From a virus (lineage: Duplodnaviria > Heunggongvirae > Uroviricota > Caudoviricetes): 11,637 bases of DNA. Positions 2,686-11,484 of the stretch are shown piece by piece; position 1 is the stretch's first letter; every line of letters begins with the position of its first letter. The DNA lies in the IMG/VR virus record IMGVR_UViG_2534681675_000022; one strand, written 5' to 3'. Made by a program: the position numbers and the translations under genes. The notes under the pieces were generated by a model. That model searched no databases. It was not told the origin of the DNA and was given only the letters and a program-made list of their open reading frames with translations.

Positions 2686-2913
2686 TCATCCTGGCGGTCG
2701 GTTTTTGCCGGATTTAAGCCGCCGTGGGTATTTATCGACAAAATCTTCAAGGGCAAATTTTTCTGGTGGCACTAAGCGCGGCGCTGGTGGTGGTATTTTT
2801 GTTCTGGTTAGTTCTTCCTCAAGTCTGGCGCAGGCTTCTGACTGCCTTTGCCGGATGATTTCATCATCTTGCGTTTGCGTGTCTTGTATTGGTGATAGTG
2901 TGTTGTTGGTCAT
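2686..2913 (-). CDS. Hypothetical small protein (75 aa), paralog 2 of a duplicated pair
   Basis: ORF begins MTNN, contains FALEDFVDKYPRR (compare FVLDEFLKKYSRS in the 2025-2228 ORF), and has the same leader immediately 5'. Confidence 0.45.
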   Translation of the reverse strand: MTNNTLSPIQDTQTQDDEIIRQRQSEACARLEEELTRTKIPPPAPRLVPPEKFALEDFVDKYPRRLKSGKNRPPG

Positions 2914-2922
2914 GTTACTGCC

Positions 2923-2966
2923 CTGTAAAGCAATGCGCCGTAGTACCTCACACCACGGCGCTGATA
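2923..2966. repeat. Conserved ~45-bp leader element, copy 2 (between RHH gene stop and ORF 2686-2913)
   Basis: Near-identical to 2234-2279. The three differences all fall in the loop of the GCGCCG/CGGCGC hairpin, so the stem is preserved. Confidence 0.6.
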
Positions 2967-2970
2967 GTGA

Positions 2971-3150
2971 TTATTCTGATTCTTTGGCCTTGCGGCGCTG
3001 GCGGCGTTTGATCTCGCCTTCAAGTGCCGAAACGATAAATTGCCCTGTACTTTCGCCATCTTCCTTTAAATTTTCTACAGCATCAGCTATTGCGTGTGGT
3101 ACTCGAGCCTCAAGCTTTTTGGATTTTGCATTAACTGCTTTTGTTGCCAT
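2971..3150 (-). CDS. Ribbon-helix-helix (Arc/MetJ/CopG-like) DNA-binding protein, 59 aa; candidate island repressor
   Basis: Internal ATG at 3148-3150 with a GAGGAAA Shine-Dalgarno; the ORF track's longer 106-aa version has a poor N-terminus. MATKAVNAKSKKLEARVPHAIADAVENLKEDGESTGQFIVSALEGEI fits the RHH strand/helix/G-x-S/helix pattern (compare Arc ...NLRWPREVLDLVRKVAEENGRSVNSEIYQRV). Divergent from the rightward operon. Confidence 0.5.
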   Translation of the reverse strand: MATKAVNAKSKKLEARVPHAIADAVENLKEDGESTGQFIVSALEGEIKRRQRRKAKESE

Positions 3151-4192: not shown

Positions 4193-4492
4193 ATGAAACT
4201 TAAATATTCTGGCTTAACTGCCAGTGGCAACACTCACCCTAAATTTACGCGCGGTGATATTTACCGCGACCAGTACGGCGGCACGGTAATGATTAAGGGC
4301 GTGGCGGGACGGTGCGTAACTTACCGCCATGAAGGTTACGAATATGATTGCGTGATGCCTGTTTATCAGTTCCGGCGTGATTTTTCTCTGGTACAGACCG
4401 CGCCGCATAACGTGCCCACCAGCAACGCCAGGGCACGGGCAAACATCCAGAAGCTGAAAACCATGATTAACGGATTCAGGGGTAAAAAATGA
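4193..4492 (+). CDS. Hypothetical protein (99 aa), overlaps start of replication gene
   Basis: ATG 4193 with GGAGA upstream; its stop overlaps the ATG of the primase ORF (ATGA coupling). Confidence 0.55.
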   Translation: MKLKYSGLTASGNTHPKFTRGDIYRDQYGGTVMIKGVAGRCVTYRHEGYEYDCVMPVYQFRRDFSLVQTAPHNVPTSNARARANIQKLKTMINGFRGKK

Positions 4493-6237
4493 AACTGGCA
4501 CCGAACGTAAAAAAACAGCCACGCGGAATAAAACACAAAGACACAGAGGTAATTATCTTTGCGGGTAGTGATGCCTGGTCGCACGCGAAACAATGGCAGG
4601 AGCAGGATGGCCCCGCATCCGGCGATAATGTGCCGCCTGTGTGGCTTGGGCCAAAGCAGCTTGCCGAACTTGATGCGCTGAAAATTGTTCCGGATGGGAA
4701 AAAGCGCGTAAGGCTGTACCAGGCCGGAGAACTGGATTTAGTGGAGACCAAAAAGATTGGTCAGAAGCTGGCGGCGGCAGATATTCAGGACGCAAATTTT
4801 TACCACGAAGGAATGCACGTCCAGAAGTGTGAAAACTGGCGGCGCTATCTGAATGCTGAGCGTGAAAATATTGCCGCAGGGCTTACCATGCCGGAGCAGA
4901 AAAATACGCAACTGGCACAAATGGCAGACAGTGAGCGCGCACAGATGCTTGCTGGTCGATTTGATGGCGTTTGTGTGCATCCGGAAAGTGAAATCGTTCA
5001 CGTATGGCGCGGCGGGGTATGGTGTCCGGTCAGCACAATGGAACTTAGCCGCGAAATGGTGGCGATCTATTCAGAGCACAGGGCCACTTTCAGCAAACGC
5101 GTGATCAATAACGCCGTTGAAGCGTTAAAAGTTATTGCCGAACCAATGGGGGAGCCGTCCGGCGATTTGTTGCCGTTCGCCAATGGTGCGCTTGACCTGA
5201 AAACGGGGGAATTTTCCCCGTACACGCCGGAGAACTGGATCACCACGCACAACGGCATTGAGTACACGCCACCAGCACCTGGGGAGAACATCCGCGATAA
5301 CGCGCCAAACTTTCATAAATGGCTTGAGCACGCAGCCGGAAAAGACCCGCGCAAGATGATGCGTATATGTGCCGCGCTGTACATGATTATGGCGAACCGG
5401 TACGACTGGCAGATGTTTATTGAGGCCACCGGAGACGGCGGGAGCGGTAAAAGTACATTCACACACATAGCCAGCCTTCTGGCAGGGAAACAGAACACGG
5501 TAAGCGCTGAAATGACATCGCTTGATGATGCTGGTGGACGTGCGCAGGTTGTCGGGAGTCGTCTTATCGTCCTGGCAGACCAGCCGAAATATACAGGCGA
5601 AGGAACGGGCATCAAGAAAATCACGGGCGGCGACCCCGTGGAAATAAACCCGAAATATGAAAAGCGTTTCACGGCGGTAATCAGGGCGGTGGTGCTGGCG
5701 ACCAATAATAACCCGATGATATTCACCGAACGGGCCGGAGGTGTGGCACGTCGTCGCGTGATTTTCCGTTTCGACAATATTGTTAGTGAGGCCGAAAAAG
5801 ACAGGGAACTACCGGAAAAAATTGCGGCTGAAATCCCCGTTATTATCCGCCGCTTGCTGGCGAACTTTACCGACCCTGAAAAGGCGAGGGCTTTACTACT
5901 GGAACAGCGTGACGGTGATGAAGCACTGGCAATAAAGCAACAGACGGATCCGGTTATTGAGTTTTGCCAGTTCCTGAATTTTCTGGAGGAAGCGCGCGGC
6001 CTGATGATGGGTGGCGGTGGTGATTCAGTGAAGTACACGACCAGGAACAGCCTTTACCGCGTCTATCTGGCGTTTATGGCATACGCAGGCAGGAGCAAAC
6101 CGCTAAACGTGGCTGAGTTCAGCAAGGCCATGAAGCCAGCGGCGAAAGTTTACGGGCATGAATATATTACGCGAAAAGTTAAGGGAGTAACGCAGACCAA
6201 CGCAATTACAACAGACGATTGCGACGCGTTTTTATAA
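4489..6237 (+). CDS. Replication initiator: phage/plasmid primase-associated D5_N-type domain plus P-loop (SF3-helicase-like) NTPase
   Basis: 582-aa ORF. Walker A GDGGSGKST and a Walker B-like hydrophobic stretch RLIVLADQ; central region typical of the P4-family primase C-terminal/D5_N architecture; located directly upstream of an iteron array. Confidence 0.85.
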   Translation: MKLAPNVKKQPRGIKHKDTEVIIFAGSDAWSHAKQWQEQDGPASGDNVPPVWLGPKQLAELDALKIVPDGKKRVRLYQAGELDLVETKKIGQKLAAADIQDANFYHEGMHVQKCENWRRYLNAERENIAAGLTMPEQKNTQLAQMADSERAQMLAGRFDGVCVHPESEIVHVWRGGVWCPVSTMELSREMVAIYSEHRATFSKRVINNAVEALKVIAEPMGEPSGDLLPFANGALDLKTGEFSPYTPENWITTHNGIEYTPPAPGENIRDNAPNFHKWLEHAAGKDPRKMMRICAALYMIMANRYDWQMFIEATGDGGSGKSTFTHIASLLAGKQNTVSAEMTSLDDAGGRAQVVGSRLIVLADQPKYTGEGTGIKKITGGDPVEINPKYEKRFTAVIRAVVLATNNNPMIFTERAGGVARRRVIFRFDNIVSEAEKDRELPEKIAAEIPVIIRRLLANFTDPEKARALLLEQRDGDEALAIKQQTDPVIEFCQFLNFLEEARGLMMGGGGDSVKYTTRNSLYRVYLAFMAYAGRSKPLNVAEFSKAMKPAAKVYGHEYITRKVKGVTQTNAITTDDCDAFL

Positions 6238-6250
6238 TTTTTTGTAAAAG

Positions 6251-6477
6251 CCCTCTACCCCATCTACCTGAATGAAATAAACGCATATTATTCAACATGA
6301 TAAGTGGGTAGAGGGCCAGGTAGAAGGCTAATAAAAGCTCTCTACCTCTTCTACCTGATTTTATCAGTTTCAGATGGCAGGGTAGACGGCAGGTAGAGGA
6401 GCACCAAAAGCTATCTACCCGCTGAAAGCCGCGCCATTACTGACATGATGAGCATTCGGGTAGATGGGTAGAGGGGG
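6251..6477. repeat. Iteron array (candidate replication origin)
   Basis: About 11 copies of GGTAGA[GATC]GG in both orientations, arranged in pairs (CCCTCTACCCCATCTACC; GGGTAGAGGGCCAGGTAGAAGG; CTCTCTACCTCTTCTACC; GGGTAGACGGCAGGTAGAGG; CTATCTACCC; GGGTAGATGGGTAGAGGG) with AT-rich spacers, immediately 3' of the replication gene. Confidence 0.7.
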
Positions 6478-6520: not shown

Positions 6521-6835
6521 ATGCGCATACATCAAAATCACTTAACAAACATGCCAGCCGAAAACATGAATCAGGGGCGACAAATGACCAAAATTCGCAG
6601 AGACAGAACAGAGCCAAAATATAAAGCGTTAGACATGACTGAGCACACCTTAAAGGTGGCAATCAGAACGATAGACCGCCACACGCGGGAAGGATACGCG
6701 AAGGAACATCCCGAACTGATAAGCGCATTCATGACCACAGCGGCGGCAAACTTTGCCACGCTGACAGAACGGGAGATTGCCGAAGCGGAACAGGTAACAA
6801 CCATCAACGTTAAAACCGGAGAGGTGGAATCATGA
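6521..6835 (+). CDS. Hypothetical protein (104 aa)
   Basis: ATG 6521 preceded by GAGGGGGTG; its stop overlaps the SSB start. Confidence 0.5.
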   Translation: MRIHQNHLTNMPAENMNQGRQMTKIRRDRTEPKYKALDMTEHTLKVAIRTIDRHTREGYAKEHPELISAFMTTAAANFATLTEREIAEAEQVTTINVKTGEVES

Positions 6836-7242
6836 CAGCACAGATAGCCGCTTACGGGCGGCTGGTGGACGACCCGCAGGTAAAACAGACCAGCAAGGGC
6901 ACACCGATGACGCTGGCGCGTATGGCGGTCCCCCTTCCGTGCAGCCAGGCAGATGACGGAACGGCTACGTTATGGCTATCGGTGATGGCATTTGGTAAGC
7001 AGGCCGACTTCCTGGCTAAACATCAAAAAGGCGACGTTGCCAGCATATCTGGCGTGATGCAGATAAGCCAGTGGACCGGACTGAACGGGGAAACGCGGCA
7101 GGGTTATCAGGTTATTGCAGACAGCGTAATCAGTGCCCGTGCGGCACGTCCTGGCGGGAACAGACGCAAAACCACAGGCGCACAGGGTAATCAGCCACCA
7201 GCGGGAGACGATGACCCCTACGGTGATGATATTCCGTTCTGA
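6832..7242 (+). CDS. ssb: Single-stranded DNA-binding protein (OB fold) with acidic C-terminal tail
   Basis: 136-aa ORF. N-terminal GRLVDDPQVKQTSKG and the W...FGK...KG...G spacing fit the SSB OB fold; Gly/Gln/Pro-rich linker; C-terminal DDDPYGDDIPF is the canonical SSB tail motif. Confidence 0.75.
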   Translation: MTAQIAAYGRLVDDPQVKQTSKGTPMTLARMAVPLPCSQADDGTATLWLSVMAFGKQADFLAKHQKGDVASISGVMQISQWTGLNGETRQGYQVIADSVISARAARPGGNRRKTTGAQGNQPPAGDDDPYGDDIPF

Positions 7243-7325: not shown

Positions 7326-7394
7326 ACGAGGTTAACAGCATGGTGACTACTGTTGCTGTAAATCATTTCATAATTTGCAACGCAACTCAATTTT

Positions 7395-7444
7395 ATTGCG
7401 CAAAATGCAATCATGATTATAATCATAACTGGATGAACATCCAG
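7395..7444 (+). promoter_or_regulatory. Candidate late-operon promoter with embedded palindromic operators
   Basis: Perfect TATAAT (7418-7423) with a weak -35 (TTGCGC, 17-bp spacer). The -10 sits inside a perfect 14-bp palindrome ATGATTATAATCAT (7413-7426), followed by a perfect 16-bp palindrome CTGGATGAACATCCAG (7429-7444). Confidence 0.4.
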
Positions 7445-7479
7445 TTGTGATTTTTTAAGTCAAAGAGGAATTTCTGACT

Positions 7480-7686
7480 ATGGCAGAAGAGAAAAAAGGC
7501 GGTGTTTCGGTGTACATAAGCCCCGAAATCGTGGAGGTGCTCAAGCAGCGCCACAAAAAAAACTATGAGGCTGGCGTAGCGGCTGGACTGGATCCGCTGA
7601 TGACGCCGGAGCCGTCGATAGGTTCACTTGTGCGCTCTTATTTACTTGCGGCGCTTGGGATGCATAAAAATTATGGGGGTGAATAA
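7480..7686 (+). CDS. Hypothetical protein (68 aa), first gene of capsid operon
   Basis: ATG 7480 with AGAGGA upstream; its stop overlaps the ATG of the major capsid gene. Confidence 0.55.
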   Translation: MAEEKKGGVSVYISPEIVEVLKQRHKKNYEAGVAAGLDPLMTPEPSIGSLVRSYLLAALGMHKNYGGE

Positions 7687-8741
7687 TGGCAGGCAAAGCA
7701 ACGGCACTTAACACTAACCAGCTTTTTGCGTACCTGAATCGCGGGGATATTGCGGAATTTAAATTCAGTCCGCTGTTTACCACGCTGTTTTTCCCGAACG
7801 TGGCGACATTCAGCACCCAAAACATCATGCTGGATACCCTGGACATTGAAGAAGTCACCATGTCGGCGTTTTGTTCGCCTATGGTTGGCAGCCAGGTACA
7901 GCGCGATAAAGGATACGAAACCAGCACGATTAAACCTGGCTACATGAAGCCAAAGCACGAAATCGATCCAACAAAAACCATCATGCGCATGGCTGGAGAA
8001 GATCCGGCACAGCTTAACGACCCTACCTACCGACGTATGCGCCTGATTACTGGCAACATGCGCCGCCAGGTAAACGCCATTAAAGCGCGCGTGGAATGGC
8101 TGGCGGTGAATGCGATAACGACCGGAAAAAACATTATTGAGGGCGAAGGCATAGAACGCTATGAAATAGACTGGAAAATACCGGAAAACTGCATCATAGA
8201 GCAGGCCAAGGGTAAAAAATGGTCCGAGCAGGATAAAGAGATGCACGACCCAATCTATGACATCGAGCTTTATGCAGATCAGGCTGGTTGCCCCGCAAAC
8301 GTCATGATTATGGGCGCTGAGGTATGGCGCACGTTACGCAGCTTTAAAAAATTCCGTGAGCTGTACGATCTTTCCCGTGGTTCAGAATCCGCCGCAGAAC
8401 TGGCCTGTAAAAACCTGGGCGAAGTGGTGAGCTTTAAAGGCTATCTGGGCGATATTGCCCTTATCGTCTATTCCGGCAAATACGCTGACAGCGACGGCAC
8501 CGAAAAATATTTCCTTGAGCCTGATTTACTGGTCCTGGGTAACACCAACAATAAAGGCCTGGTGGCCTATGGTGCGATTATGGATCAGGAAGCGGTCAGA
8601 ACGGGCGCAACGCAAAACATGTACTACCCGAAAAACTGGATTGAGGACGGCGATCCGGCGATTGAGTACGTGCAGACACACAGCGCACCGCAGCCGGTAC
8701 CGGCAGATATTCGCAAATTTGTTACCGTCAAAATTGGTTAA
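7686..8741 (+). CDS. Major capsid protein, phage lambda gpE family
   Basis: 351-aa ORF colinear over its whole length with lambda gpE (341 aa) as I recall it: EFKFSPLF vs KFKFDPLF; PGYMKPKHEI vs PGYVKPKHEV; EDPAQLNDPTYRRMR vs EDPQNLADPAYRRRR; SRGSESAAELACKNLGEVVSFKGYLGDIALIVYSGKY vs RRGSNSELETAVKDLGKAVSYKGMYGDVAIVVYSGQY; YPKNWIEDGDPAIEY vs YPKNWVTTGDPAREF. Confidence 0.9.
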   Translation: MAGKATALNTNQLFAYLNRGDIAEFKFSPLFTTLFFPNVATFSTQNIMLDTLDIEEVTMSAFCSPMVGSQVQRDKGYETSTIKPGYMKPKHEIDPTKTIMRMAGEDPAQLNDPTYRRMRLITGNMRRQVNAIKARVEWLAVNAITTGKNIIEGEGIERYEIDWKIPENCIIEQAKGKKWSEQDKEMHDPIYDIELYADQAGCPANVMIMGAEVWRTLRSFKKFRELYDLSRGSESAAELACKNLGEVVSFKGYLGDIALIVYSGKYADSDGTEKYFLEPDLLVLGNTNNKGLVAYGAIMDQEAVRTGATQNMYYPKNWIEDGDPAIEYVQTHSAPQPVPADIRKFVTVKIG

Positions 8742-8752
8742 CGGGGGATTCT

Positions 8753-9088
8753 ATGGACACTCCATACATTGAGTTATTCGCAGGCAGTCAGCAGGTCGCC
8801 ACGACGCTGGTACATTTTGCCGCTGATGCTGGCGTTATTCAGGAATTTACCCCGCTGATGCTGGCGGACAATGGCGAGTTTAAGCCGTGGGATGGTCAGG
8901 AATCTGGCAAGGCTGTTTATCTGACTTCGTACCCCGTGGACACGTCGACGCAGAAATCAGCACAGTGTTACAAGACGGGGATATTTAATATCGCTGCCGT
9001 AAACTGGCCTGAGAGCGCCGACACTGACGCGAAAAAATGCGCTGCCTTTGCGGGGGCTGGCGTATCCGTTCAGCCGCTGGCCCGATAA
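8753..9088 (+). CDS. Head decoration protein, phage lambda gpD family
   Basis: 111-aa ORF. TPLMLADNGEFKPWDG, YKTGIF and WPESADTDAKKCAAFAGAGVSV match lambda gpD ([46 protein letters not shown]). GGGGGA Shine-Dalgarno upstream. Confidence 0.85.
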   Translation: MDTPYIELFAGSQQVATTLVHFAADAGVIQEFTPLMLADNGEFKPWDGQESGKAVYLTSYPVDTSTQKSAQCYKTGIFNIAAVNWPESADTDAKKCAAFAGAGVSVQPLAR

Positions 9089-9097
9089 GCAGGGGGA

Positions 9098-9514
9098 ATG
9101 ATGGCAACGAATGAAAGCATCATGACGCTACCGCTGGCGAGTAAATTTAAAGCCGAAGCGCGGGCAATGGCTGACAGAGGGTTATCAACCTACGAGGGCA
9201 TATATCAACTTAACAAACTGGAAGAGCAGGACAAGCCGCGCGCTGATTCGATTATGGCGCTTGATGAATCTGGCGACTATCAGCCGCTGTTACGTGCAAT
9301 GGCAAACGTGCCTTGTATCGATGTTGGTACGGCTAAAAGCATCCTTAGCATGACCATAGAGCAGGAACGTCCGAAGGTTGCGCCGGAGCTTACCGCAGCC
9401 TTTGAAAACTTTATGGACACGCACAGCCCGCAAGCCGTATCAGCTGGCATGGCATACGATGGCAGAAACCCGGGCGATGACGGCGACATCGATCGCATAC
9501 TGAAAACCATCTGA
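9098..9514 (+). CDS. Hypothetical protein (138 aa) downstream of the capsid genes
   Basis: ATG 9098 or 9101 after AGGGGG; last gene before the terminator and cos. Sits where lambda has FI, but I could not support sequence similarity to FI. Confidence 0.55.
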   Translation: MMATNESIMTLPLASKFKAEARAMADRGLSTYEGIYQLNKLEEQDKPRADSIMALDESGDYQPLLRAMANVPCIDVGTAKSILSMTIEQERPKVAPELTAAFENFMDTHSPQAVSAGMAYDGRNPGDDGDIDRILKTI

Positions 9515-9516
9515 GA

Positions 9517-9542
9517 CAGGCCGGAGAAATCCGGCTTTTTTT
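9517..9542 (+). terminator. Intrinsic terminator after the capsid operon, abutting cos
   Basis: GCCGGA gaaa TCCGGC followed by eight T residues; near-duplicate of the 7251-7273 terminator. Confidence 0.75.
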
Positions 9543-9610
9543 ACGGGTCCTTTCCGGCATATGGACCCGTTACGGGGCGGCGACCTCGCGCGTTTTCGCT
9601 ATTTATGAGC
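9543..9610 (+). other. Lambda-type cos site A: cosQ-side flank, cosN (12-nt cohesive end GGGCGGCGACCT at 9575-9586) and first ~24 bp of the cosB side
   Basis: ACGGGTCCTTTCCGG...GTTACG GGGCGGCGACCT CGCGCGTTTTCGCTATTTATGA is almost base-for-base the lambda right-end/left-end junction as I recall it; similarity ends after TTTATGA. Confidence 0.75.
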
Positions 9611-9719: not shown

Positions 9720-10262
9720 ATGAAATCGCACCTGATGAACAAAAAAAACATGGCGAAAAGCTGCCGTGTAAGTGCGACAGCGTTCGACAAGTGGGGAGTG
9801 ACTCCCGTTGAACGTAAAGGCCGTGAGGCGTTTTATGATGTTGCCAGCGTGATAGACAATAGGGTTAACAATGCAATTAGCCAGCTTACAAACGACAAAG
9901 GCGATATTGATGATGATGAACTCTTACGAGTCAGGATCAGATTACTGACAGCACAGGCGGAGGCGCAGGAACTTAAAAACGAGCGCGATCGCGGTGACGT
10001 GATTGATACTGAGTTTTGCCTGTACGCGCTTTCAAAGCTGGCGAGTCAGATTTCATCAATCATGGACAGCCTCCCGCTTACTATGCAAAGGAGCTTCCCA
10101 CAGATTACCCCCGCCATGCTGGACAGGCTTAAAAGGGAAGTGGTTAAAGCCTGTAATGCCAGTGCCAGAGTTGCCGACAACCTCCCACAGATACTGGCTG
10201 ATTACTTGAAAGAAACAACCGGAAACGTACCGGAAAAGTTGCTACAGAAGAAAGGCAAGTAA
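9720..10262 (+). CDS. Terminase small subunit, lambda Nu1 family
   Basis: 180-aa ORF. C-terminal two-thirds align with lambda Nu1: LLTAQAEAQELKNERD vs LTRAQADAQELKNARD; FCLYALSKLASQISSIMDSLPLTMQRSFPQ vs FCTFVLSRIAGEIASILDGLPLSVQRRFPE; LKREVVKACN vs LKRDIIKAMN. N-terminal wHTH region is recognisable (NKK..., YDVASVI vs YDSAAVI) but divergent in the recognition-helix region. Start could be 9720, 9735 or 9750. Confidence 0.85.
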   Translation: MKSHLMNKKNMAKSCRVSATAFDKWGVTPVERKGREAFYDVASVIDNRVNNAISQLTNDKGDIDDDELLRVRIRLLTAQAEAQELKNERDRGDVIDTEFCLYALSKLASQISSIMDSLPLTMQRSFPQITPAMLDRLKREVVKACNASARVADNLPQILADYLKETTGNVPEKLLQKKGK

Positions 10263-10288: not shown

Positions 10289-10490
10289 GAGAAAGGATCT
10301 GATAATGGCATTTTCTGGCTAAAATGCCTCGTGTCAGATCCTTTCTTTTTTTAATATTTTCATTGTTAAACAGTCTGTTACAGAGAAGAAGAACGGATCT
10401 GACTTTTGCCGGAAAATTTTCATAAACAGATAAAAACCGCGAGGTCGCCGCCCCGTAACGGGCCATAATTCCAGGAAGGACCCGACGACA
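10289..10490 (-). other. Lambda-type cos site B in inverted orientation: cosQ-side flank, cosN (10442-10453) and a full cosB-like region with three R-like repeats
   Basis: Minus strand reads CGGGTCCTTCCTGGAATTATGGCCCGTTACG GGGCGGCGACCT CGCGGTTTTTATCTGTTTATGAAAATTTTCCGG ...CCGTTCTTCTTC..., tracking lambda cos for more than 100 bp. Core GGATCTGA/TCAGATCC at 10294-10301, 10333-10340 and 10395-10402 sits where lambda has CGTTTCC/GGAAACG, in the same orientation pattern. The inner 13-bp inverted repeat (10289-10301 / 10333-10345) plus T-run also looks like a terminator for terS. Confidence 0.75.
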
Positions 10491-10517: not shown

Positions 10518-10799
10518 ATGACAGAAGCCGAACTACTGCGATTAATCCGCCGCGTTACCGGAATCAGCCAGCAGCATGACGAACAGGGCACGCAACCGGA
10601 CAGCGTGACCGCTGAAAATTATGCGCGTGTTGTTGCTGAGGTGATGCGCCGTGATGGTATTGAGCTTAACGGCGTGGATATGCGCAACATACGAACCAGA
10701 GTCCTTGAGTTGCTGGCATACCGTCGCCGCGTGGAGATGTATCGGGAGAAGGAGAAAATCACGTACCACTGGAAGAAGCCGGAACGGTTGCGGCGGTAA
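10518..10799 (+). CDS. Hypothetical protein (93 aa) just outside cos B
   Basis: ATG 10518 after GATGGGGG; Arg-rich helical-looking protein; no recognisable family. Confidence 0.4.
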   Translation: MTEAELLRLIRRVTGISQQHDEQGTQPDSVTAENYARVVAEVMRRDGIELNGVDMRNIRTRVLELLAYRRRVEMYREKEKITYHWKKPERLRR

Positions 10800-11322: not shown

Positions 11323-11484
11323 ACAGCAACGCCCCCTTAAAATTACCCGCCTTTATATTTCTTGTGCCTATTTGTTCCACGTTGTTTCATACAGTGCGCC
11401 GAACGGTGTAGTCACTGGTGTAGTTATTTTGAGTTTTTTTGCACTTCGGGCTTAATTGAAAATATAATTAAATCAGTATGTTAT

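Follow-up and report, generated by a model that had tools for sequence, protein, structure and literature searches.

Why should a phage satellite that has no portal, protease or large terminase gene keep a capsid protein and a decoration protein of its own? This question is raised by positions 7480-9514 of the viral record IMGVR_UViG_2534681675_000022, whose whole stretch of 11,637 bases we refer to as the window and which is almost exactly one mobile element. Judged by its genes, the element is an ordinary E. coli phage satellite, a Gram-negative phage-inducible chromosomal island (PICI) of the EcCICFT073/EcCIIHE3034 type. A first-pass annotation, made from the sequence alone, had proposed that the island's capsid protein takes over helper assembly to form a smaller, satellite-sized shell. 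From the data described below, together with published experiments on near-identical genes, we concluded that the capsid operon is neither needed for packaging of the island nor the cause of the interference with lambda. We consider it likely that the window is a cos-type PICI located in tqsA and encoding its own small terminase (TerS); an accessory role of the capsid operon in supplying shell protein is our tentative proposal.

The capsid operon and its proteins

The locus has the following features, where lengths are given in amino acids (aa) and the numbers c1498 to c1501 are those of the EcCICFT073 genes.

7355-7479, + strand: promoter-like leader of the capsid operon, conserved among six PICIs (alignment A3)
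7480-9514, + strand: four-gene 'capsid morphogenesis' operon, counterpart of c1498-c1501 in EcCICFT073
7480-7686, + strand: 68-aa protein (c1498 homologue, phrog_3255; PHROG E 8.5e-46), translationally coupled to the capsid gene
7686-8741, + strand: major capsid protein of the lambda gpE family, 351 aa (c1499 homologue; Pfam, PHROG, blast and PDB matches)
8753-9088, + strand: head decoration protein of the gpD/SHP family, 111 aa (c1500 homologue; Pfam, PHROG and PDB matches)
9098-9514, + strand: 138-aa protein (c1501 homologue; annotated start 9101), homologue of the Nu3 C-terminal domain (PHROG, HMMER and alignment)
9518-9545, + strand: intrinsic terminator closing the four-gene operon (terminator/hairpin search)

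The 351-aa protein matched Pfam Phage_cap_E (PF03864) over residues 26-349 of its 351 residues (E 4.6e-51; 174 bits with a cut-off of 22.9) and has 43% identity to lambda gpE in an alignment of 328 aa (E 2e-92). It is 97% identical over residues 2-350 to the crystal structure 3BQW ('putative capsid protein of prophage') and also matched the lambda capsid chain 7VI9 (E 3e-81). Compared with gpE, four residues are inserted in the satellite protein and its N-terminus is longer; the satellite capsid proteins share conserved blocks that are without counterpart in the phage copies, such as IKARVEWLAVNAITTGKNIIEGEGIERYEIDW. The 111-aa protein matched Pfam HDPD over the whole domain (PF02924; E 3.4e-17, 63 bits with a cut-off of 29.1) and has 38% identity to lambda gpD; among solved structures it is closest to the decoration protein chains 1TD0 (E 5e-13) and 1TD3, and 1C5E was also matched (E 4e-10). 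The two proteins are thus members of the lambda gpE (PF03864) and the gpD/phage 21 SHP (PF02924) families, respectively, and the gpE-like and gpD-like character that had been proposed for them holds, in the case of the capsid protein over the full length.

When the lambda head and packaging proteins were compared with the whole window by tblastn, only Nu1, D and E found a match, and A, W, B, C, FI and FII gave nothing with E < 0.09. The Pfam and PHROG scans agreed with this result, as no portal, protease or large terminase was present among the open reading frames (ORFs) of the window. The lack of these three functions, reported in the first-pass annotation, therefore survived a search for remnants. 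The gene order that it described was likewise confirmed. The genes follow the order 68-aa protein, capsid (E), decoration (D) and 138-aa protein, in which E precedes D, the reverse of lambda. The stop codon of the 68-aa ORF and the start codon of the capsid gene share one base (TAATG at 7684-7688), consistent with translational coupling, and the capsid-decoration gap (11 nt) and the gap between the decoration and 138-aa genes (9-12 nt) each contain a GGGGGA Shine-Dalgarno sequence.

The claim that the operon has no scaffold stood only in part. The 138-aa protein belongs to phrog_1999, a family that is also matched by residues 117-200 of lambda Nu3 (E 2.7e-26), and it also resembles phrog_53, a protease/scaffold family, at the C-terminal end of that family (E 1.8e-8). 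When 1.84 billion representative proteins were searched exhaustively with HMMER, the only hits outside its own family were Nu3-like proteins, P0100 (E 2.4e-7) and P0101, which are built of the repeat IMxLxEAxGRE..LA..PGMT..A..LL. In alignment A5, the 138-aa protein consists of two degenerate Nu3-type repeats followed by the Nu3 C-terminal tail; it has both the C-terminal repeat (IMxLxEAxGRE...PGMT..A..IL) and the tail of the Nu3/gpC scaffolds. The C-terminal IDRILKTI is invariant and corresponds to VNDLLNT in the alignment with Nu3. The 138-aa protein lacks the N-terminal two-thirds of Nu3 as well as the S49 protease domain of gpC, and to this extent the original statement was correct. From these alignments, the 138-aa protein is a derivative of the C-terminal domain of the lambda scaffold Nu3/gpC. 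Homologues carry the NCBI name 'phage head-tail connector protein', which we rejected. This name is probably wrong because the detectable homology is to the Nu3/gpC C-terminal domain and no NCBIfam or Pfam model tested matches. A link between Nu3 and PICIs, and with it the small observation of a Nu3 C-terminal homology of the 137/138-aa protein, was not found in the searchable literature (open-access papers and preprints).

This third gene downstream of the 68-aa gene, counted from the capsid gene, is variable among the islands. It is Nu3-like in the window, CFT073, IHE3034, L005 and L008/L009, AlpA-like in L010, L011, L013 and L014, and absent in the Salmonella island L007.

The 68-aa protein gave no Pfam or NCBIfam match even at E 1-10 and has no similarity to lambda gpW. 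Its AlphaFold2 (AF2) model contains two helices (pLDDT, the predicted local distance difference test score, of 72) and had no Foldseek match in the PDB. A ribbon-helix-helix fold, which had been a guess for this protein, was supported by neither a family nor a Foldseek match. In E. coli RM14516 (L003, 9001-9206), the annotation gives a frameshift in the 68-aa gene; the three other operon genes (capsid, decoration and 137-aa) and the rest of that island are intact.

The leader at 7355-7479 contains a TATAAT box, a hairpin of 14 bp followed by a run of T (7421-7452), a Shine-Dalgarno sequence (AAGAGGA) and the elements TTGCAAC/ATTGC..AAAATGCAAT; the hairpin is present in most of the islands aligned. 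The ~110 nt that precede the operon are nearly invariant in six PICIs, even where the capsid genes are only 81% identical, and are more conserved than the adjoining coding DNA. The stretch resembles a regulated promoter followed by a leader of terminator-like form.

Dispensability and conservation of the module

Satellite capsid and decoration genes in Gram-negative PICIs are already known and have been described since 2018. In the supplementary tables of Fillol-Salom et al. 2018, c1499 is listed as 'capsid' (351 aa) and c1501 as a 137-aa protein, and c1500 has been called a head decoration protein (PMC6092414). Of 29 reference Gram-negative PICIs, 21 carry a capsid gene, which transfer does not require (PMC10111431), and the PICI model of SatelliteFinder treats 'capsid morphogenesis' and terS as core components (PMC10085698). 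Capsid protein homologues are also known from the satellites SaPIbov5 (Ccm) and PmCI172. Contrary to the premise of the first-pass annotation, the arrangement is thus not unprecedented. A function assigned to c1498-c1501 after 2018 was not found in the literature searched.

The experiments on the near-identical module were made with EcCICFT073, the only one of these islands for which induction, replication and high-frequency transfer by a helper have been shown experimentally (PMC6092414). Deletion of c1499 or c1500 changed neither the interference with lambda nor the transfer of this island, the virion DNA from a lambda lysogen carrying it was all phage-sized, and a PICI-monomer band was not seen upon induction of CFT073 (PMC6092414). 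Dispensability and phage-sized virion DNA are further supported by PMC6893505. When c1498-c1501 were swapped for cas9, the island was still packaged and was delivered by phi80 lacking its own cos site (PMC10530653). Among the genes 3' of ori, expressed singly, only c1503 (rppA) inhibited lambda and phi80; deletion of rppA fully restored plaques, with lambda titres nearly at the level of the island-free host. We considered a disrupted operon in the c1501::tetA island as the cause of these negative results and rejected it. By the primers of Table S6, one homology arm finishes with the c1501 stop codon and the other begins with the terminator hairpin, which leaves the operon of that island intact; the c1499::cat island does lack the capsid gene. 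The published data on these near-identical genes therefore indicate that the operon can be replaced or deleted without loss of transfer by lambda, phi80 or the native helper.

These results bear directly on the proposed satellite-sized shell, which finds no support in the phage-sized virion DNA obtained with lambda or in the neutral c1499 and c1500 deletions. The genes flanking the capsid and decoration genes, whose products had been put forward as possible helpers of such a shell, are indeed part of the capsid operon, and the 138-aa protein is scaffold-related. The size of the island, about a quarter of lambda, had been taken as a hint of small heads. According to the authors of PMC10530653, the length of a cos island has to be an exact fraction of that of the helper genome, and the quarter-of-lambda size is therefore better explained by concatemers of about four units. 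Four copies of 11.6 kb make ~46 kb, or ~96% of the 48.5 kb of lambda, which fits tetramers in full-size heads.

We then looked at the distribution of the module. It was present in 598 of 5426 complete E. coli genomes at 81-100% nucleotide identity (at least 90% in all but one record), and over at least 80% of its length in 594 of these 598 carriers. A capsid copy more than 46% identical was not found among 50,697 phage genomes, of which 408 records gave a match, all below 60% and the best at 46%. All relatives examined at 51-97% capsid identity sit in islands with the layout int-alpA-rep-capsid-decoration, and such islands with related capsid genes occur in E. coli, Salmonella, Serratia and Edwardsiella. 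In an Edwardsiella island (L015) located in the portal gene of its presumed helper prophage, satellite and helper are 47% identical in the capsid protein and 41% in the decoration protein. The capsid and decoration genes thus form a satellite-only lineage, to which no phage or helper copy is more than 47% identical.

Several of the related islands (L005, L009, L011, L013 and L015) are embedded in prophage late genes, in agreement with the published 'helper-embedded PICI' type. The sites include the E gene (L011), the portal gene (L015) and the tail/baseplate clusters of contractile-tail phages (L005 and L013). L015 provides a direct satellite/helper pair for comparison of the capsid proteins.

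The ratio of non-synonymous to synonymous substitutions (dN/dS) was calculated by the Nei-Gojobori method for other PICI copies against the window. For the capsid gene it was 0.07-0.16 against eight other PICI copies, with dS reaching saturation. The decoration gene and the 68-aa gene each gave 0.07-0.31, and the Nu3-like (138-aa) gene 0.28-0.55. The capsid genes of all nine further PICIs compared are full-length ORFs, and so the pseudogenes in related islands that would have spoken against a functional capsid protein were not encountered. The strong purifying selection on the capsid and decoration genes indicates that they do something.

Possible roles of the operon

The puzzle is then why a satellite-only capsid/decoration lineage that is dispensable for transfer is maintained under phage-like purifying selection, in ~11% of the complete E. 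coli genomes and in islands of no fewer than three further genera. For the near-identical module, size redirection and interference have already been tested, with negative results. A scaffold C-terminal homologue in the operon, and an identity of only ~45% even to the embedding helper, point to a real, conditional role in head assembly.

Our tentative choice, and the most likely of the roles considered, is that the operon provides a self-supplied shell of normal size that is useful under certain conditions only. The operon would supply satellite shell subunits, a matching cement protein and a scaffold-tail mimic, which may enter prohead assembly nucleated by the portal, protease and scaffold of the helper. 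The products would be normal-size capsids built wholly or partly of satellite protein. Where present, the Nu3-tail protein may dock to the shell interior as Nu3/gpC do. Such an accessory function would be of benefit with certain helpers or under certain conditions only, for instance if the capsid protein of the helper is in short supply, interrupted or incompatible. A decoration protein attaches to its cognate capsid protein only in the expanded lattice. That both genes stay adjacent and constrained across 50-100% divergence therefore speaks for real expanded shells made of satellite capsid protein.

Several points weigh against this role. Satellite capsid or decoration protein has not been detected in particles by any published experiment. 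Deletion of either gene, or of the whole operon, had no measured laboratory cost, and a structural role must therefore be redundant in those settings. The third gene is not universal, and the Nu3-like protein therefore cannot be essential to the function of the capsid and decoration proteins. Binding of the capsid by the Nu3 C-terminal tail is assumed by analogy to the scaffolds of P22, phi29 and 80alpha, not from lambda.

The operon could instead redirect capsid size with its natural helpers, the capsid protein acting like Ccm and the Nu3-tail protein like CpmB as a competing scaffold, to give T=3 or T=4 shells with room for a single copy of the island but not for the genome of the helper. 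There are precedents for this. Ccm of SaPIbov5, a satellite capsid homologue, forms the pentamers of T=4 shells, and the Gram-negative PICI PmCI172, which also encodes a capsid homologue, produces small heads (PMC6092414). CpmB mimics the C-terminus of the helper scaffold, and the 138-aa protein similarly keeps the Nu3 C-terminal tail without the N-terminal two-thirds. The negative transfer phenotype is not decisive on this point because CpmA/B are also dispensable for transfer. Against redirection, all virion DNA obtained with lambda and EcCICFT073 was phage-sized, in an island with an intact operon, induction of CFT073 gave no monomer band, and transfer is better when the island is an exact fraction of the helper length, as expected for concatemers. 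By volume scaling, 11.6 kb fits a T=4 (~18-21 kb) or T=3 (~10-14 kb) shell less neatly than four copies fit a T=7 shell (96% of 48.5 kb). We find small-capsid redirection quite unlikely. A related proposal is that the operon is a helper-specific capsid-remodelling kit of capsid protein, matching decoration protein and Nu3 C-terminal mimic, which would build satellite-specific, possibly small, shells on the portals of lambdoid helpers that the island meets in nature, lambda, phi80 and CFT073 phage 4 excepted. If true, this would explain strong purifying selection despite the lack of a laboratory phenotype; we hold it to be doubtful.

An alternative without any shell of the satellite's own is that the capsid, decoration and Nu3-tail proteins poison assembly, by co-assembling with or titrating the head proteins of certain lambdoid phages, and so protect the host or the island. 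Interference and defence functions are common in PICIs, a scaffold-tail mimic could compete with Nu3/gpC for capsid protein, and a lineage held at ~45% identity to the helper proteins could suit dominant-negative mixing. This is difficult to reconcile with the finding that among the singly expressed genes rppA alone was inhibitory and that its deletion restored plaques, while the c1499 and c1500 deletions did not relieve interference. No PADLOC defence family matched any protein of the operon, and constraint on a matching decoration protein is not what a poison would require; this role is in our opinion unlikely. It could also be argued that the operon is a decaying remnant, now without function, of a fuller head module from a prophage or a capsid-forming PICI ancestor. 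The dispensability of the genes in every published assay, the order E-D-Nu3', scrambled with respect to Nu3-D-E of lambda, and the frameshifted 68-aa gene of one island (L003) would be in line with decay. We regard it as highly improbable, given the capsid dN/dS values across divergences up to dS saturation, the intact capsid ORFs in nine further PICIs (four genera overall) and the nearly complete module in almost all E. coli carriers (594 of 598). A role other than those listed here keeps an appreciable share of the probability.

Packaging region, island layout and known systems

The first-pass annotation had omitted a full-length Nu1-type TerS (9720-10262) and two copies of the lambda cosN 12-mer, which lie downstream of the operon.

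9575-9586, + strand: cos1, exact lambda cosN 12-mer (sequence match)
9720-10262, + strand: Nu1-family small terminase (TerS), 180 aa (Pfam Phage_Nu1 E 2.3e-23; position relative to CFT073)
10442-10453, - strand: cos2, inverted second cosN copy with ~25 nt of identical flank (sequence match)
10518-10799, + strand: 93-aa protein (phrog_1561; PHROG), which ends the packaging region

The flanks of cos1 follow the lambda left end for ~35 nt and then diverge, from which it follows that the cosB of the island differs from that of lambda. TerS is 35% identical to Nu1 over 179 aa; its C-terminal half is better conserved and its N-terminal DNA-binding part has diverged. In lambda, the C-terminal part of Nu1 binds gpA. 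By analogy with this domain organisation, the conserved C-terminal half of the island TerS should recruit the large terminase gpA of the helper. Packaging specificity would then come from the island's own cos sites together with its own Nu1-like TerS, not from the capsid operon, and the ~11.6-kb genome would be packaged as about a tetramer into full-size heads.

The position of TerS between the inverted cosN sites is the place of rppA in EcCICFT073. We considered the 180-aa protein as an Rpp and rejected this assignment; as it is a full Nu1 homologue, the island has a TerS rather than an Rpp. Neither the 93-aa nor the 180-aa protein matched a PDB chain, including those of RppC (6HLK/6HN7). Judged from the gene contents of these islands, this place seems to accept either TerS or Rpp as interchangeable cassettes. 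The 93-aa protein, for which the structure and family searches gave no match beyond phrog_1561, has a dN/dS of 0.12-0.48. It lies at the end of the packaging region in the majority of the related E. coli islands examined, in those with TerS as in those with Rpp.

The remainder of the window holds the following features.

1-1218, + strand: tyrosine integrase (Pfam Arm-DNA-bind_3 and Phage_integrase; RefSeq annotation of the NZ_AP042564 locus)
1593-1781, + strand: AlpA-family regulator, a hallmark of Gram-negative PICIs (Pfam Phage_AlpA E 5e-18)
between alpA and the primase gene, + strand: several small genes, among them an Icd-like gene and the DUF4222 gene of the next line
4193-4492, + strand: DUF4222 gene, just before the primase gene (Pfam/PHROG scans)
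4489-6237, + strand: primase/replicase (D5_N, DUF5906, Pox_D5; Pfam/PHROG scans)
6245-6475, strand not applicable: probable replication origin, with at least 10 GGTAGAnGG iterons in both orientations directly 3' of pri (repeat search)
6832-7242, + strand: single-strand DNA-binding protein (SSB; Pfam SSB E 6e-14)

A copy 99.9% identical to the window is located in E. coli OkiPb01694 between two fragments of tqsA, the AI-2 transporter gene, and the RefSeq annotation of NZ_AP042564 shows tqsA split by the identical locus. Because this copy sits between two tqsA halves, the size of the island is ~11.5-11.7 kb, which agrees with the ~11.5-kb satellite described earlier. The annotated start of the integrase is 12 nt upstream of the window. 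The main genes are all on the + strand in the order int-alpA-pri/ori-SSB-capsid operon-cos-terS, and the only co-directional ORFs of at least 130 aa encode the integrase, the primase, SSB, the capsid protein, the 138-aa protein and TerS. An integrase end is followed by AlpA, the element has its own primase and an iteron origin, and it is a site-specific insertion within the ~10-15 kb range; tail, lysis, portal and large-terminase genes are lacking, and a capsid-morphogenesis gene, terS and cos are present. As this gene set and order match those of the Gram-negative phage-inducible chromosomal islands, the window was assigned to the PICIs. The iteron cluster at 6245-6475 is presumably the replication origin of the island, and its position agrees with that described for the PICI ori (PMC6092414).

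Two tandem, diverged copies of a two-gene cassette are present on the minus strand between alpA and the icd-like gene (2025-2465 and 2686-3150). Each encodes a 67- or 75-aa protein and a 59-aa protein, the second of the 59-aa proteins being assigned to the YlcI/YnfO family in RefSeq. These cassettes had no Pfam match, and their PADLOC match was weak and probably spurious. A 21-nt doubled motif, CGGTGTAGTCACTGGTGTAGT, is present just 5' of int (L001 5941-5961, 59 nt before the start of the window) and again at 11404-11424 of the window, and the islands L003 and L007 have an equivalent arrangement, each with its own motif. The doubled motifs are probably arm-type sites of the integrase and not the crossover core.

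Compared with lambda, the window has homologues of gpE (43% identity), gpD (38%) and the C-terminal 85 aa of Nu3 in the reversed order E-D-Nu3', and the N-terminal part of Nu3 and the whole protease domain of gpC have no counterpart. The set typical of P4-like satellites (Sid, Psu, Delta and alpha primase) was not represented in the Pfam/PHROG scans, and no unassigned ORF of the window is long enough. The capsid-forming PICIs (cf-PICIs; EcCIEDL933) have an int-alpA-rep backbone and their own capsid protein, as in the window; however, they also encode the portal, protease, head-tail connectors, HNH and large terminase (TerL), none of which is found in the window, and build complete small capsids. 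Published trees separate the PICI and cf-PICI capsid genes almost perfectly (PMC10085698).

Functional analogues are found among the staphylococcal islands SaPIbov5 and SaPI1. Like the window capsid protein, SaPIbov5 Ccm is a satellite-encoded HK97-fold capsid homologue in a cos-type island, and it is dispensable for transfer. CpmB of SaPI1, a small helical mimic of the scaffold C-terminus that is also dispensable for transfer, is the analogue of the 138-aa protein. Neither has a sequence relationship to the module of the window, and both islands lack a decoration protein, unlike the window. Ccm and CpmB demonstrably make small capsids, whereas the EcCICFT073 module does not with lambda.

The closest relatives are the two islands after which the type is named. 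The EcCICFT073 proteins are 96% (capsid), 96% (decoration), 96% (137-aa) and 68% (68-aa) identical to those of the window. EcCICFT073 also shares the DUF4222, pri, SSB and terminal 93-aa genes; its operon is followed by the 144-aa and 93-aa genes and phoQ, and its int and alpA, which lie outside the compared stretch, were taken from the literature. Both islands have two cos sites, those of EcCICFT073 being published. EcCICFT073 carries RppA (c1503, 144 aa), which hijacks the helper TerS, at the place where the window has its 180-aa Nu1-like TerS, and it integrates beside phoQ (on the roxA side, by analogy with L003 and L006), whereas the island of the window is in tqsA. EcCIIHE3034, a TerS-encoding island (Fillol-Salom et al. 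2018), has a different integrase, is inserted between cspD and clpS, and is transferred only poorly by its own resident prophages. Its right half is like that of the window, including the capsid, decoration, 137-aa, Nu1-like TerS and 93-aa proteins; its 68-aa protein has the same RefSeq accession as that of the NZ_AP042564 locus, and its capsid operon is 95.8% identical to that of the window at the nucleotide level.

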